Assembly: GCF_900199515.1 (NCBI RefSeq)
Contig: NZ_LT963434.1
Coordinates: 903,272-935,271 of the forward strand
From: Massilicoli timonensis
Lineage (GTDB): Bacteria; Bacillota_I; Bacilli_A; Erysipelotrichales; Erysipelotrichaceae
Direction of reading: 5' to 3'
DNA: 32,000 bases
In this document: in pieces, positions 16,561 to 22,945 of the stretch
How the letters are laid out: the number at the start of each line of letters is the position of its first letter
Numbering within the stretch: position 1 is the stretch's first letter
Notes under the pieces: model-generated
Databases searched by the model: none
What the model was told of the DNA's origin: nothing
The model's input: the letters and a program-made list of their open reading frames with translations, nothing else
Made by a program: the position numbers and the translations under genes

Positions 16561-16596
16561 GAAAAAGAAAAGACACACATGTCGCCATGTGTATCT
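16561..16596 (-). terminator. Rho-independent terminator after the 96-aa gene
   Basis: On the minus strand, an 11-bp stem AGAUACACAUG / CAUGUGUGUCU (one G-U pair) with a 4-nt loop, followed by UUUCUUUUUC. It overlaps the stop codon. Confidence 0.8.
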
Positions 16597-16886
16597 TATG
16601 CGTGTTTGACCCGATCTCTTTCTTCCGCTGCTTTCGCATCATTGAAGCGATCCAGCGTACCTACCAAATAACCGGTGATTCTTCTGATCTTCTCAAATTT
16701 CATCGGCGCCAAATAATAGCCGACACCGACCTCCTCACCGTCAAAATCCAAAGAGATCGATTCGATATCACGTCCCGGATTTTTCTCTTTTACATAACGG
16801 ATGTAGTTATGCAGTTCACTTTCCTCTACATCTAAATTATAAGAAATTTCAATACCGTCGATCGTTTTGTTATATACCATGCTCAT
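16596..16886 (-). CDS. Small protein with an NrdD-type (class III RNR) glycyl-radical C-terminal motif; stand-alone
   Basis: AGGAGG SD. The C-terminus KIRRITGYLVGTLDRFNDAKAAEERDRVKHA matches the extreme C-terminus of anaerobic RNR NrdD (RxxGYL ... N..K..E...RVKH). The protein contains no Cys and has no NrdD catalytic barrel. The ATG at 16880 is an alternative start. Confidence 0.7.
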   Translation of the reverse strand: MSMVYNKTIDGIEISYNLDVEESELHNYIRYVKEKNPGRDIESISLDFDGEEVGVGYYLAPMKFEKIRRITGYLVGTLDRFNDAKAAEERDRVKHA

Positions 16887-16943
16887 CAGCCTCCTATTTA
16901 AGGTTATTATAACGCGAATTGCGCATAGAAGAAACTGAAATGC

Positions 16944-18266
16944 TTATTTTTTCAACGATTTCGTTAAAATATAGTCATCCATGACATAACCGTTCCCGAT
17001 ATCGCTTACCACCGCATCACAAATGACAAAGCCCTTATGCCGATAAACATCTAAAGAATGTGTGTTGTACTTATTGCAGGTAAGCGTGATGGAAGGCAGA
17101 TCGTATTGTTTCGCCGTCTGTTCCGCCTGTTTTAACATCATGTTCGCATATCCTTTGCCTCGGTATGCTTTCTTTAGATACAGCTTGCTTAAAAACAAAG
17201 TATCCGCTTTGGGGCAAACCCCCAGATAACCGATTGCTTCTTTTCCCAAATAGGCGATCCAATATTGATAGGCGTCTTGTTTGATCGCTTTGTGGAGCGC
17301 CGTTTCACTTTGAAAGCGATCCACCATATAATCGATCTGATCAGCGCTTAACAAAGCGACAAAGTATTCATGCCAGATTCCATCAGCCAGCTTTGCCAAA
17401 GCCTTGATCTGCGCATTTGTTTCACAGCATACAAGCTGTACCTCTTTCTTTGCGGGCAGGGCAAACTCCCAAATGACTTCCGCGACCGCCCCGTGCAAAG
17501 CATCATTTTTCGTAATATGATCGGCAACTTGCTTAACGGCTTCCTGTCCATTGGCAACACATACGCCAAGTCCCGCATAAGCGATCATCGAGGCATCATT
17601 GGCATTATCGCCGATGGCAATGATATCCTCTCGCGCAATATGCAATAGCTCTGCCAGCTGTGCTAATGCTTTGCCTTTGTCGATCGAGCGATCATTTAAT
17701 TCCATATAGCGATTGCTGGAATAAGAGAGCGAAAGTGCGTCCTTCCATTCCTTCGGCATCTGTTTTTCTATTTCATACAAATAATCCATATCGTTATTTT
17801 GATACATCATCTTGATGATCTCCACGCCCGCTAACGCATCAAATGATTCGATTTCCTGATAATGCGTTGCCTCAAAATATTCCAAACGCATTTTTTCATC
17901 ATCATTGATCCGATAGATATACAAGGTATCTTCACTGAACACCTGTATGCAGACGGAAAACTGCTGACCAAACGCAAACAGCTCCCGCGCCAGATCAAAA
18001 GACATCGCACTTTTCTTCACACAGTGCAGGTCAGCACATGACAGGATCAAGGCACCGTTGTTGACCAACAGATATTCATCAGGGTTTTGCCAAAGGTGCA
18101 GTTGTCTTAACATCGGCTCTAACGTAAATCCCGGACGCCCCGTCGCCAATACAAAGCGGCCTCCCTGTTTGATAAAAGCGTCGATTGCCGCTATGTTTTC
18201 CGGCGCGATCTTGCCTGCTTCATACAATGTTTCATCAATATCACATGCAATCAGTCGATACATCAT
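16944..18266 (-). CDS. Fusion protein: N-terminal Cof-type HAD-IIB hydrolase plus C-terminal GNAT N-acetyltransferase
   Basis: The HAD domain has IACDIDETLY (motif I), ATGRP and IGDNANDASM (motif IV). The GNAT domain starts at about residue 275 (LYLKKAYRGKGYANMMLKQAE...LDVYRHKGF). GGGAGGAAG SD. Confidence 0.85.
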   Translation of the reverse strand: MMYRLIACDIDETLYEAGKIAPENIAAIDAFIKQGGRFVLATGRPGFTLEPMLRQLHLWQNPDEYLLVNNGALILSCADLHCVKKSAMSFDLARELFAFGQQFSVCIQVFSEDTLYIYRINDDEKMRLEYFEATHYQEIESFDALAGVEIIKMMYQNNDMDYLYEIEKQMPKEWKDALSLSYSSNRYMELNDRSIDKGKALAQLAELLHIAREDIIAIGDNANDASMIAYAGLGVCVANGQEAVKQVADHITKNDALHGAVAEVIWEFALPAKKEVQLVCCETNAQIKALAKLADGIWHEYFVALLSADQIDYMVDRFQSETALHKAIKQDAYQYWIAYLGKEAIGYLGVCPKADTLFLSKLYLKKAYRGKGYANMMLKQAEQTAKQYDLPSITLTCNKYNTHSLDVYRHKGFVICDAVVSDIGNGYVMDDYILTKSLKK

Positions 18267-18445: not shown

Positions 18446-19489
18446 TTACAGATCATCTACCAGCGCCGTGCTTTTCGCATAGGCGGTGGACTTTGCTTCA
18501 AAGAAATCAGTTTTGATCAGATTCGCATTGGAATACATGGATACCCATTCCATTGATTTCGGCTCTTTTTCATATCCTTCATAAAGAACCCCAAAGCCAA
18601 GTGAGGTACTGCGCAGATTTCCCAAATAGTAAATATATGCCGATACCATTTCCATCGTCAATCCTTCGATCTCATCGCCGATCACATAGGCAGCCCAGCG
18701 GATTTCTTCCTCTACGCCCTGCTTCAGCATCTTTCGATATTCTTCGATACGCTCTTTCGTAAACAACTGCGGTTCCTCTTTCTGCAATTCTAAGATCATG
18801 GAGCGAAACAGCCATAAATGCGTGTTTTCATCACGGTTGATATAGCGGATCTCCTGCACCGAACCGGGCATTTTCCCCATTCTTCCCAGATTGTAGAAAA
18901 ACATAAAGCCGGAATAAAAGTAAATGCCTTCTAAAATATAATTGGCCATCATCGTCTTCATTAAGTGATAGCTGTCACGATGAAGCTGAAAATCATTGTA
19001 GAGATCACCGATAAACTTATTTCTTGCGAGCAGATGTGCATCATCTTTCCACTGGTATAAAATATCGTTTCTTTCCTGTGGTGAACAGATCGAATCCAAC
19101 ATATAGCTGTAGCTTTGTGAATGCACCGCTTCCTGAAATGCCTGAATCGTCAAACAGAGATTGACTTCATTGGCGGTAATGTATTCACCCACATTAGGCA
19201 GATTGGCTGTCTGTATGGAATCCAGAAAGATCAAAAAGGATAAGGTCTTGTCATATGCCGTTTTTTCTGCCTTGCTTAACTTTCGATAATCTTTCACATC
19301 CTGATTCAAATTGATTTCCTCGGGGATCCAAAAATTATTCATCGCCTGTCGGTACCAGTCTGATACCCAGCTGTATTTCATATTGTTAAAATCATTCAGA
19401 TTGGTCGTATTGCCGTTGATCATGCGACGTTTTCCTACCTCGCAATCACCGCTTTCATTAAACAGCGGTTTCCGTTTCAAATCGTTCAT
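18446..19489 (-). CDS. nrdB: Class I ribonucleoside-diphosphate reductase, beta (small) subunit
   Basis: 347 aa. Di-metal ligand motifs EAVHSQSYSYM and RDENTHL, plus FWIPEEI and EGIYFYSGF. AAAGGAG SD. Confidence 0.92.
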   Translation of the reverse strand: MNDLKRKPLFNESGDCEVGKRRMINGNTTNLNDFNNMKYSWVSDWYRQAMNNFWIPEEINLNQDVKDYRKLSKAEKTAYDKTLSFLIFLDSIQTANLPNVGEYITANEVNLCLTIQAFQEAVHSQSYSYMLDSICSPQERNDILYQWKDDAHLLARNKFIGDLYNDFQLHRDSYHLMKTMMANYILEGIYFYSGFMFFYNLGRMGKMPGSVQEIRYINRDENTHLWLFRSMILELQKEEPQLFTKERIEEYRKMLKQGVEEEIRWAAYVIGDEIEGLTMEMVSAYIYYLGNLRSTSLGFGVLYEGYEKEPKSMEWVSMYSNANLIKTDFFEAKSTAYAKSTALVDDL

Positions 19490-19502: not shown

Positions 19503-22019
19503 CTAAGATGCGCATGATTCGCATTCTTCTACTTCTAATGCCTTGCTGCGAACATAATACAGTGTTTTTACCCCACATTCCCATGCGTGGATCAGTAACT
19601 GCAATACCTGGCGAAGTGTAAATTCATTGGTAATATACAGATTGACCGATTGGGCCTGATCGATGTGGCGCTGACGGATGCCGGCAGAACGAACGATCCA
19701 GTTCTGGTCGATCGTATGTGCGTTTTTATACAGCCAGAAGGTCTTTGCATTCAGATCCGGCGCTACTCTGGCGATCATGCTGCCTTTTTTCTCTTCCAAG
19801 AAATATTTATTCATGATCGGATCGATGCCGGCCGTCGTACCGGCAATGATCGAAGTAGAACTGGTCGGTGCGATCGCCATGATCCACGCGTTGCGCAGTC
19901 CATCGGCTGCGACTTGTTCGGCAAGTTGGTTCCATGCTTCGCTGTGATAACCGCGTTTGGTAAAATAAGCTCCGCTCTGCCAGTCGCTTCCTTCAAACTG
20001 TGCATAACGTCCCTTTTCCTTTGCCAATGCATGACTTGCGGAAATCGCATGATAGTTGATCTTTTCAAACAGCTCGTCAACAAAGTGCAAATGCTCCTCA
20101 GACTCAAAACGGATTCCCTGCTTGCAGAGCATATGGTGATACCCGCTGACCCCAAGACCGATCGGACGATACATCTGGTTGGTGATCTTTGCATAGGGAA
20201 TCGGATAATAGTTGAGATCAATGACATTATCCAAAGCGCGTACCACGACTTTGATGATATGGGCGAGCGCTTCTTCATCTTCGACGGCGATATTGCCCAA
20301 TGACAGACTGGCGAGGTTACATACCACAAAATCCCCCGGCTTGCTTTGATTGACTACGATTTTCTCATTGCCGACTTCCACGATCCGGCTTTCCATCAAT
20401 TCGATCGCTTTCATGTTCTGTGCGATTTCCGTACATAGATTGCTGCAATAGATCATGCCTTTATGCGGATTGGGATTCATGCGGTTGACATGATCGCGGT
20501 TAAAGGTAAACGGCGTTCCGGTTTCTACTGCCGATTTCAATATCAGCCGCACGACATCTTTTAATACCATGGCACGTTTAGGGATCCTGGCATCCTGCAC
20601 ACATTCAAAATAGCGTTTCTCCCACTCTGCTCCATAATAATCTTCTAAGTGATAACCTTTGATCTTGTGGATCTCATGCGGACACATCAAATACCATGTC
20701 GCATTCAGATCTTCCTTTGCCATTTTCCAGAACAAGTCCGGATAGCAGATGGCAGGAAATACATCATGTGCTTTCATGCGGTCATCGCCATTGTTGGTTC
20801 TAAGACTTAAAAACTCCGGCAGATCTTTATGCCATGCGTCTAAGTACACGGCTACCGCGCCTTGTCGTACACCTAGCTGATCGACTGCGGTTGCCGTATC
20901 ATTGACGAGCTTGATCCAGCGGATGACTCCGCCGGCAGCTCCTTCAAAGCCACGAATATCACTGCCGTTGGCGCGTACTTTGCCAAAATATAATCCCATC
21001 CCGCCGCCATACTTTGACACTTGTGCGAAATTATCGATGCTTTTATAAATATTGCTGAGCGTATCTGCCACGGTGTCAATAAAACAGCTGGATAGCTGGT
21101 GGTATGGTTTGCGGGCATTGGCCATCGTCGGCGTCGCCATCGTTACCTGTAATTTGCTTAGAATATCATAGATTTCCTTTGCCCAGTGCACCCGATCGTT
21201 TTCTTTCATTGCCAAATGCATGGCAATTCCCATAAACATCTCCTGCGGTGTTTCTAAAACCTCATGGGAGTGAGAACAGATCAGATATCGCTTCTTGATC
21301 AGTTCCAATCCGCTGAAGGTAAGCAAAGCATCTCTTTCATCTTGCATATATGCTTCTAATGCGTCGATTTCTTCCTTCTGATAATGCGCTAGGATGTAAC
21401 TGCCGTAATAGCCCTCTGCTTCCAGATAGCGGATCTTCTCATAAAAAGAGGAAATTGCCAGTTTCTGCATCCGTGCGTCGATCTGTGCATGCAGTTCATA
21501 CGCATAAAACAAAGAAGCGATGTACTCCCATTTCGGCGCTTCCTTGCTGATGAGCTCCACACAGGCTTTGATCAACATCTGTAAGCGTGCATCGGCATTC
21601 ATATCCGCTTTTATGAATGATTGAAACTTTGCATGCAAATGACGAAGATCGTAAACATCTTCCTGGTAATCCTTTTGGATCTTTATCATGATCTTGCGCA
21701 AGGCCTCATTATGCGTTAACGCTAACAGTTCATTTATGATTTGGCGATGTTCCGCCTGTTTCTGCCGATATAAAATATAACGCTTTGCCTCTTGGTAAAA
21801 GCGGTGGTGCATCAGCTGTTCTTCCACCAGATCCTGTATCTTTTCTACACGCAATAAAGAGGCATCTGCTTCTGCCTGTCTTGTAATTTCCCGTACGATC
21901 TCTTGCAGTATTGCAGGACTGATTTCCGTATCGCCGCTTTGAAACGCTTTTTGGATCGCTGTGGCGATCTTTTGCCCGTTAAACTCCTGAAAGGATCCAT
22001 CTCTTTTCTGTATTTTCAT
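19503..22019 (-). CDS. nrdA: Class Ia ribonucleoside-diphosphate reductase, alpha subunit (with N-terminal ATP-cone)
   Basis: ATP-cone MKIQKRDGSFQEFNGQKIATAIQKAF, active-site CSNLCTEI and C-terminal redox pair CESCAS. The ORF-track start is a TTG with no spacer after the SD; the ATG at 22019 is 9 nt from AAGGTGG. Confidence 0.93.
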   Translation of the reverse strand: MKIQKRDGSFQEFNGQKIATAIQKAFQSGDTEISPAILQEIVREITRQAEADASLLRVEKIQDLVEEQLMHHRFYQEAKRYILYRQKQAEHRQIINELLALTHNEALRKIMIKIQKDYQEDVYDLRHLHAKFQSFIKADMNADARLQMLIKACVELISKEAPKWEYIASLFYAYELHAQIDARMQKLAISSFYEKIRYLEAEGYYGSYILAHYQKEEIDALEAYMQDERDALLTFSGLELIKKRYLICSHSHEVLETPQEMFMGIAMHLAMKENDRVHWAKEIYDILSKLQVTMATPTMANARKPYHQLSSCFIDTVADTLSNIYKSIDNFAQVSKYGGGMGLYFGKVRANGSDIRGFEGAAGGVIRWIKLVNDTATAVDQLGVRQGAVAVYLDAWHKDLPEFLSLRTNNGDDRMKAHDVFPAICYPDLFWKMAKEDLNATWYLMCPHEIHKIKGYHLEDYYGAEWEKRYFECVQDARIPKRAMVLKDVVRLILKSAVETGTPFTFNRDHVNRMNPNPHKGMIYCSNLCTEIAQNMKAIELMESRIVEVGNEKIVVNQSKPGDFVVCNLASLSLGNIAVEDEEALAHIIKVVVRALDNVIDLNYYPIPYAKITNQMYRPIGLGVSGYHHMLCKQGIRFESEEHLHFVDELFEKINYHAISASHALAKEKGRYAQFEGSDWQSGAYFTKRGYHSEAWNQLAEQVAADGLRNAWIMAIAPTSSTSIIAGTTAGIDPIMNKYFLEEKKGSMIARVAPDLNAKTFWLYKNAHTIDQNWIVRSAGIRQRHIDQAQSVNLYITNEFTLRQVLQLLIHAWECGVKTLYYVRSKALEVEECESCAS

Positions 22020-22306
22020 GATAGCCAACCACCTTTTTTATCAGTATAGATGAAATGAGCGGTTCTTCGCAACTGAGATGACTGAAAGAAAACAGGCATG
22101 CTATTTACAATCCTTTTCAGTGTGATTTCTGCAACATCTTTTCAATTGTGCTTACGGAACTGTGTTTTCCTTTATAATCGTCTAAGCGGCAATAGTCTAT
22201 TTTTTGTATATTTGAACGAAAAAAGCGACATTTTTTGTACCATTATTTTGTTGTAAGCCTCCCTTTTTCTTTAGTAAAATGAAAATGCAAGGAGGACAAT
22301 GCAACT

Positions 22307-22945
22307 ATGATCATGAAAAAAATGAAGACGACTGCGCGCATGTATGAAGTCGGCGCACTGGCAATCGTGCGTGCGGAAACACTGGAGCGTGCCTGTGAAA
22401 TTGCCGATGGCTGTATCAAGGGCGGCGTGCCGGTCATGGAAATGAGCTATACCTTAAATAATGCCGGTACGATCATTGAAGGATTAAAGCAGAAATACGG
22501 TGATGCGCTTTGTGTAGGTGCAGGGACGGTGCTGGATCGGGAAACGGCGCGGCATGCGATCTTGCACGGCGCACAGTTCATCATCGCTCCTAATTTTGAC
22601 AAAGGTGTCGCGGAAATGTGCAATCGCTATCAGATTCCTTATGCACCGGGCTGTACGACATTGAGCGAAGCGATCGAAGGGCTGAGCAGCGGAGCGGCTT
22701 TCATCAAAGCCTTCCCCATCTCCGATTTCTATGGTCCAAAGCTGGTAAAGGTATTCAAAACACCGATTCCTGATATGCCGATCCTCGCATCCGGCGGCAT
22801 CCATTTGGATAATCTGCAAAACTGGCTGGAAAATGGAGTCGATGTCTGTGGATTCGGCGGCTTGCTCACAAAGGGAAGCAGTGATGAGATTGCGGAAAAT
22901 GCCGCTAAGATCAAAGCGATCATTGCCGCTTATCGTAATCAGTAA
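22307..22945 (+). CDS. eda: 2-dehydro-3-deoxyphosphogluconate / 4-hydroxy-2-oxoglutarate aldolase (KDPG/KHG aldolase)
   Basis: 212 aa. Motifs IVRAETLE, GGVPVMEMSYT, GAGTVLD, PGCTTLSE and FIKAFP (Schiff-base Lys region). AAGGAGGA SD. Confidence 0.85.
   Translation: MIMKKMKTTARMYEVGALAIVRAETLERACEIADGCIKGGVPVMEMSYTLNNAGTIIEGLKQKYGDALCVGAGTVLDRETARHAILHGAQFIIAPNFDKGVAEMCNRYQIPYAPGCTTLSEAIEGLSSGAAFIKAFPISDFYGPKLVKVFKTPIPDMPILASGGIHLDNLQNWLENGVDVCGFGGLLTKGSSDEIAENAAKIKAIIAAYRNQ

Follow-up and report, generated by a model that had tools for sequence, protein, structure and literature searches.

Introduction

DNA synthesis of most strict anaerobes depends on the anaerobic ribonucleotide reductase, the class III ribonucleotide reductase (RNR) NrdD. 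Glycyl-radical enzymes are cleaved by O2 at the radical glycine, and in the case of pyruvate formate-lyase (PFL) the cleaved domain is replaced by the protein GrcA/YfiD after activation by PFL-AE (PMC13450708, PMC8683613). A review of June 2026 names the formate lyases as the sole class of glycyl-radical enzymes with spare-part proteins and leaves it to be determined whether other classes have any. GrcA/YfiD of E. coli and Y06I of phage T4 are small stand-alone proteins with the C-terminal glycyl-radical loop of a large enzyme. The same holds for the product of a small gene in the DNA analysed here, a stretch of 32,000 nucleotides of Massilicoli timonensis (contig NZ_LT963434.1, positions 903,272 to 935,271; hereafter the window), but its parent enzyme is class III RNR, where that of GrcA/YfiD is PFL. 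From its sequence and gene context, the small protein most likely serves class III RNR as a glycyl-radical module acting in trans, because there are NrdD enzymes without a tail of their own, the small gene stands in all nine of the tail-less operons inspected (9/9), the distribution is complementary and NrdR boxes are strongly enriched upstream of those small genes that no nrdD precedes.

A small gene encoding the C-terminal tail of NrdD

The open reading frame (ORF) of the small gene lies on the minus strand of the window at 16596..16886, with its stop codon at 16596-16598, and encodes 96 amino acids, two of which are extra N-terminal residues. The true coding sequence is probably 16596-16880 on the same strand, with a product of 94 amino acids starting with MVYNK..., identical to RefSeq entry WP_102267870.1 of M. 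timonensis. This start is preferred because the Shine-Dalgarno sequence AGGAGG (16890..16895, minus strand) is spaced 9 nt from ATG 16880 and because the RefSeq form and the close homologues of the protein begin at the second methionine. The ribosome binding site given in the preliminary description is thus present, as is the terminator, an intrinsic-terminator-like hairpin of 12 pairs at 16570..16597 (minus strand) with a T-run, TTCTTTTT, after it; the start given there, for 96 residues, is not retained, with the Shine-Dalgarno sequence only 3 nt from ATG 16886. The gap of 57 nt to the upstream gene was confirmed, this gene ending at 16944. Direct reading of the spacer revealed a possible −10 hexamer, TATAAT, at 16906..16911 (minus strand) with a weak −35 box, which was not called by a consensus promoter scan. 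Similar TATAAT elements are found just 5' of the homologues in the Erysipelotrichaceae, and the hexamer suggests that the small gene may have its own promoter.

Residues 63-96 (KFEKIRRITGYLVGTLDRFNDAKAAEERDRVKHA; 16599..16700, minus strand) were identified by profile and structure matches as a glycyl-radical loop and C-terminal tail of the NrdD type. Pfam family NRDD (PF13597) matches residues 64-95 with its profile positions 533-562 of 562 (E=1.3e-6), and the 27.8 bits exceed the gathering cut-off of 26.2. The NCBIfam NrdD equivalogs NF005497 (E=2e-11) and NF011292 (E=3e-11) also match, confined to their last 33 positions, and the scores of the whole protein are far below the family cut-offs (TIGR02487, 27.9 versus 326 bits; NF005497, 42.9 versus 764). 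In the structure of Prevotella copri NrdD (PDB 8p23) residues 707-738 match the tail with E=2e-6, the common residues being ritgylvgt.dr.n..k.ae..drv.h, and an hhalign comparison of the family profile with full-length NrdD gave a probability of 99.3 with the tail alone aligned. The likeness to the NrdD C-terminus, first noticed from the letters alone, is therefore well beyond chance according to Pfam, NCBIfam, 8p23 and hhalign alike. Gly72, Tyr73 and Arg80 of the small protein align with Gly711, Tyr712 and Arg719 of P. copri NrdD, residues which bear the radical and link the glycyl-radical domain with the NxN flap (PMC11226230). The codon of Gly72 (ggt, 16671..16673, minus strand), the predicted radical glycine, lies within the motif RRITGYL.

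The remainder of NrdD is missing, as had been proposed from the translation. The profile matches, limited to the last ~30 positions, leave out the ten-stranded alpha/beta barrel with the catalytic cysteine loop, and the four-cysteine Zn-ribbon that precedes the radical loop in NrdD is replaced by a different domain without cysteines; the translated ORF contains none at all. This N-terminal domain (residues 1-62; 16701..16886, minus strand) has a predicted AlphaFold2 fold and has no counterpart in NrdD, since hhalign aligns the tail only.

A conserved family of small proteins

A scan of one genome per species yielded at least 600 matched stretches, of which 592 of those listed encode relatives of the small protein, and the best 80 loci were inspected. 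Almost all of these 80 contain stand-alone ORFs of ~87-125 amino acids, in Erysipelotrichaceae, Eggerthellaceae, Oscillospiraceae/Ruminococcus, Selenomonadales, Christensenellales and others. The family ranges over Firmicutes and Coriobacteriia. In a word-indexed search, over 100 clusters of proteins 86-113 amino acids long matched the query with ~98% coverage and 51-93% identity. When 1.84 billion cluster representatives were searched with the profile, 1617 matches were obtained at E<=1e-10 (50%-identity representatives), nearly all of the top 150 measuring 77-160 amino acids. Longer members of 135-236 amino acids have unannotated extensions and no informative domain fusion.

The window protein aligns over its full length with 75 homologues and with the operon-encoded members. 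In alignments of 26 and 76 sequences the tail is near-invariant, F-E-[KR]-I-R-R-I-T-G-Y-L-V-G-T-x-D-R-[FW]-N-x-x-K-x-x-E-x-x-D-R-V-K-H. Gly72, the conservation of which had been named as a check on the assignment, is invariant together with Tyr73, and Arg80 is kept in at least 90% of the members. The N-terminal ~60 residues are more variable yet alignable, with Y28, G50, V53, Y57 and P61 conserved. Between close relatives dN/dS is ~0.02-0.2 in N-terminal domain and tail alike, by which measure both are under strong purifying selection. AlphaFold2 predicts a compact beta-beta-alpha-beta-beta fold for the N-terminal domain, with a pLDDT of about 95 for residues 1-60, and a low pLDDT for the tail when modelled alone, which would fit a segment that takes on order only upon binding. 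For the N-terminal domain, searches of Pfam and NCBIfam gave no match, and PDB and BFVD gave no significant fold match.

These data bear on the possibility that the gene is a functionless remnant, the leftover 3' end of a disrupted nrdD. The resemblance to NrdD is indeed limited to the last ~33 residues and RefSeq names the 94-residue form WP_102267870.1 after the whole enzyme, 'anaerobic ribonucleoside-triphosphate reductase'. Against this, the 60-residue N-terminal domain is not NrdD sequence and is conserved across orders with the dN/dS values above, and the family counts ~1,600 representatives. The gene also has its own Shine-Dalgarno sequence and terminator and its flanks are free of nrdD debris, the grounds on which a trivial pseudogene had already been doubted. 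The remnant explanation is refuted by the family-wide conservation and its probability is negligible.

Short cysteine-rich extensions (SCSCSLEEIA, CDCCH, ECNCD, PRMCCSNA, ISCASC) form the C-terminus of many of the small proteins, and likewise of many NrdDs with or without a tail, where they follow either RVKH or the Zn-ribbon. They were seen in the small proteins of loci L041, L051, L052, L056, L066, L076, L024, L016 and L055 and in the NrdDs of L055, L020, L095 and L099. The window protein has no such C-terminal extension.

NrdD enzymes without a radical glycine

In L020 (Megamonas), L080 and L083 (Schwartzia), NrdD stops right after the Zn-ribbon (...CPRCGRTEEEHHQRIIIPRMCCSNA) and the radical glycine is absent. 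The absence is characteristic of the lineage: when the Megamonas protein was compared with its 120 nearest NrdD clusters, 118 of them had no such glycine; these are from Selenomonadales and 76-87% identical to the query. Among the 120 clusters closest to a Clostridia NrdD, 24 (about 20%) miss the glycine and 96 are full-length. The decayed ends of these Clostridia proteins include GFERIRRISCASCKTVYDV and SERLKRFVTHGEC..., and some retain FERIRRI and diverge exactly at the position of the glycine, by which they resemble the O2-cleaved enzyme. The tail-less NrdDs retain the Zn-ribbon, the motifs HIHD and TPAEG and the NxN flap, which in P. copri NrdD is one of several elements in contact with the radical domain (PMC11226230).

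The nine tail-less operons inspected all have the order nrdD (without glycine), small gene, nrdG, often followed by nrdR. The tail-less nrdD genes are located at L020:7644-9959, L080:7680-9956, L083:508-2778, L086:4001-6295, L091:4001-6259, L093:3501-6008, L095:2611-5088, L097:3501-5822 and L099:3501-5789, L086 coming from the complete genome of Selenomonas sp. TAMA-11512 (AP029018.1, 765,626-775,920). Conversely, a Selenomonad NrdD that does bear the tail (P0325) was found in the same synteny of MS-channel gene, nrdD and nrdG, with the small gene absent. Each small gene in the tail-less operons has its own Shine-Dalgarno sequence and its frame relative to nrdD varies. A recoding or frameshift event fusing nrdD to the small ORF was considered and rejected, with frame offsets of 0, 1 or 2 and in-frame stops in three of the spacers; because the reading frame varies, no conserved recoding joins the two genes. 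The cis tail has probably been lost repeatedly, in the Selenomonadales and in several lineages of Clostridia.

The small protein might instead be a regulator or decoy that tunes class III RNR by competing for NrdG or by filling the NrdD barrel without catalysis. Such a role would agree with its NrdG recognition loop, with co-transcription with nrdG in many operons and with the apparent NrdR control of many members. It would leave the glycine-less NrdDs, however, with 118 clusters at 76-87% identity and intact catalytic motifs, without means to work: they must obtain a glycyl radical, for which the operon offers no candidate other than the small protein. The invariance of the radical glycine and its neighbours argues in the same direction, and a decoy is considered improbable.

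Linkage to full-length nrdD, nrdG and NrdR boxes

Neighbour clustering and tblastn placed nrdG directly downstream of the small gene in seven of the 80 loci and nrdD directly upstream in four. Over all loci inspected, nrdG follows the small gene immediately in 15, and in L037, L045 and L060 this linkage exists without nrdD. In the Clostridia loci L055, L101 and L103, a complete NrdD is encoded together with the small protein and NrdG, the small gene standing between nrdD and nrdG. The cis and trans tails of the same genome share 32/32, 30/32 and 32/32 residues in these three loci, versus 27-29/32 for non-cognate pairs. In a common gut Clostridia lineage, an additional ORF of 217-244 amino acids was observed between the full-length nrdD and the small gene (L101:5833-6486, L102:5833-6567); that of L101 has no Pfam match.

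In most loci, including the window and its relatives in the Erysipelotrichaceae, the small gene is solitary and the neighbourhoods are varied. NrdR-box-like palindromes, searched for with up to 2 mismatches within 300 nt upstream, precede 18 of the 75 small genes that are not preceded by nrdD, compared with 13 of 2000 random windows from the same loci (Fisher p=2e-19). The same pattern recovers boxes upstream of nrdD operons. In six Ruminococcus loci (L038:9200-10871 and likewise L057, L062, L064, L073 and L081), the small gene lies between a divergent gene for a Crp/Fnr-type regulator and a co-directional rubrerythrin gene ~80 nt downstream, a weak hint at an oxidative-stress context.

The family could also serve a partner other than NrdD, another glycyl-radical enzyme or some acceptor as yet without a name, with a borrowed NrdD tail. 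In most loci the small gene is beside neither nrdD nor nrdG, and its N-terminal domain has no assigned function, which leaves room for such a partner. The tail is nearly identical to the NrdD tail of the same genome, however; nrdD, nrdG and nrdR are the only recurrent functional neighbours, to which the NrdR boxes are added, and no other glycyl-radical enzyme recurs in the neighbourhoods. A different partner is thus very improbable.

Surroundings of the gene in Massilicoli timonensis

Directly upstream of the small gene on the minus strand lies a gene (16944-18266) whose product of 440 amino acids combines a Cof-type HAD-IIB phosphatase with a GNAT acetyltransferase in one chain. No terminator was detected between the two genes, which may be co-transcribed. 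Further upstream, on the same strand, are nrdB (18446-19489) and nrdA (19503-22028). The position of the small gene downstream of the class Ia genes and on their strand, to which the preliminary description had drawn attention, is as stated there. The proximity is probably incidental, since a terminator-like hairpin directly after nrdB (18444-18427) separates nrdAB from the small gene and none of the other loci examined links them. More generally, synteny of the small gene with its window neighbours (nrdAB, the HAD-GNAT gene, DUF6709 and DeoC) is not kept outside M. timonensis.

Proposed mechanism

In the proposed mechanism, the radical-SAM activase NrdG would abstract a hydrogen from the glycine of the flexible tail, Gly72 (...RRITGYLVG...RVKH). 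The activated tail would insert into the NrdD barrel at the site of the enzyme's own radical loop, beside the catalytic cysteine loop, and the folded N-terminal domain could be the handle by which the small protein docks on NrdD or is presented to NrdG. For an NrdD without a tail, the small protein would be an obligate radical subunit. For a complete NrdD, it would be a second, replaceable radical site, which most plausibly restores activity after O2 cleavage in the manner of GrcA. In the simplest history, a copy of the NrdD tail would have been fused to a new N-terminal domain as a second source of the radical site; because the small protein could replace the cis tail, the latter would have become dispensable and would then have been lost several times.

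The best joint explanation of the data is an undescribed family of ~90-residue proteins acting as NrdG-activated radical modules for NrdD, with a spare-part role likelier in M. timonensis, and this explanation is regarded as quite probable. A two-component class III RNR is likely as well, in which the small protein would be the first autonomous glycyl-radical protein beyond PFL, a ~10-kDa subunit activated by NrdG that would act as a replaceable cartridge after oxygen damage where NrdD has kept its tail. The idea put forward in the preliminary description, a stand-alone NrdD radical tail able to replace the enzyme's own, is strongly supported by the conserved family, the invariant glycine, the linkage to nrdG and nrdD, the nine tail-less operons and the NrdR boxes. 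Repair of O2-cleaved NrdD, as proposed there, would not be its role everywhere: in some lineages the small protein is the only glycyl-radical tail.

Several observations weigh against a radical module for NrdD. Gene context is the sole basis on which NrdG is inferred to activate the small protein and NrdD to bind it. Neither nrdD nor nrdG was found within the window, and an NrdR-box-like palindrome (up to 3 mismatches) is present nowhere in it, including the region upstream of nrdA (22029-22330); M. timonensis may have no NrdR control or a divergent box. In the Erysipelotrichaceae loci as a group no NrdR box was found and the neighbourhood is not conserved, so that the link to RNR in this family of bacteria rests on homology to members elsewhere. 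The support for a role in oxygen damage, the rubrerythrin and Crp/Fnr-type neighbours in six Ruminococcus loci, is thin.

For M. timonensis itself, the small protein may alternatively be the only glycyl-radical site of a tail-less NrdD, so that the class III RNR would consist of two pieces. NrdDs of the tail-less kind are common (118/120 clusters in the Selenomonadales and 24/120 in the Clostridia), and the separation of the small gene from nrdD in L037, L045 and L060 would permit an unlinked pairing with such an enzyme. The nine tail-less NrdDs inspected, on the other hand, all have the small gene immediately downstream, while the window copy is solitary with neither nrdD nor nrdG nearby, and in the one non-Selenomonad clade sampled full-length NrdDs are the majority (96/120). 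This arrangement is rather unlikely in M. timonensis. A spare part for a complete NrdD is more likely there than an obligate subunit, because the inspected tail-less enzymes all adjoin a small gene and the window copy stands alone.

Phage copies

Matches in the phage collection fall mostly in the tail-coding ends of nrdD genes that phages carry. Two 'Bacteriophage sp.' contigs of faecal origin, both without annotation, match 80% of the query (residues 20-96). In Eggerthella phage EL753P1 (L104:29-2584; OP172808.1, 3741-7178), nrdD was read from its translation to stop after the Zn-ribbon and to contain an apparent intein-like insert. About 450 nt downstream, past an ORF of 102 amino acids, a separate short ORF encodes ...GVGFERIRRI, whereupon the frame shifts to TTGYLTGSADRWNDAKKAELRDRVKHGK, apparently by a 5-nt insertion (TGACC) at the glycine codon. 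A group I intron as the cause of the separated tail was rejected, as Rfam detected none there. A split gene, recoding, decay or an error in the sequencing could each account for this arrangement.

Comparison with known systems

Full-text literature searches found no description of a spare part for RNR, of an autonomous glycyl-radical protein for NrdD or of a split NrdD, in agreement with the earlier remark that a module of this sort was not known for RNR. With it there is a first candidate for a spare-part radical protein outside pyruvate formate-lyase and, if this is true, the family would answer the question of the 2026 review in the case of the anaerobic ribonucleotide reductase. Members of the family abound in bacteria of gut and rumen. 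Genome surveys in which the large gene by itself decides whether NrdD is functional would be wrong about whole orders, the Selenomonadales among them, and annotation is affected in that RefSeq names proteins of 90 amino acids as anaerobic ribonucleoside-triphosphate reductase. A tail-less NrdD with the small protein and NrdG would offer a ready experimental system for following a glycyl radical from its installation on one polypeptide to its use in a second.

By its sequence, the small protein is an analogue of GrcA and not a homologue. A search with Gly_radical (PF01228), suggested in the preliminary description, gave no match, nor did the GrcA models of Pfam and NCBIfam, even at E<=10. The radical domain of GrcA comprises ~60 residues, whereas the small protein borrows only the loop and tail of ~33 residues. 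The N-terminus of YfiD is disordered and the N-terminal half of the small protein is confidently folded according to AlphaFold2, so that the order of folded and flexible parts is reversed. For PFL we know of no natural parent enzymes that lack their own glycine; for NrdD, glycine-less parents exist.

Compared with the glycyl-radical domain of NrdD itself (P. copri 8p23, T4 NrdD), the counterparts of Gly711, Tyr712 and Arg719 and the terminal RVKH are kept in the small protein, and the Zn-ribbon, the catalytic barrel and the ATP-cone are absent. A precedent for an RNR catalytic chain in two polypeptides, encoded by adjacent genes, is the split class II enzyme NrdJa/NrdJb of Pseudomonas aeruginosa (PMC9669993, PMC4520616). 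That split detaches the C-terminal IscU-like/Zn-finger region, whereas the small protein carries the radical glycine and an added domain of its own. The beta subunit of class I RNR (NrdB/NrdF) is also a separate radical-bearing polypeptide that serves a catalytic subunit. This is a likeness of logic only, as NrdB/NrdF has a metallo-tyrosyl radical with an unrelated fold and transfer mechanism and the radical of the small protein is predicted to be a glycyl. The concept of a spare part is thus known; what is new is the enzyme concerned, together with the family and its architecture.

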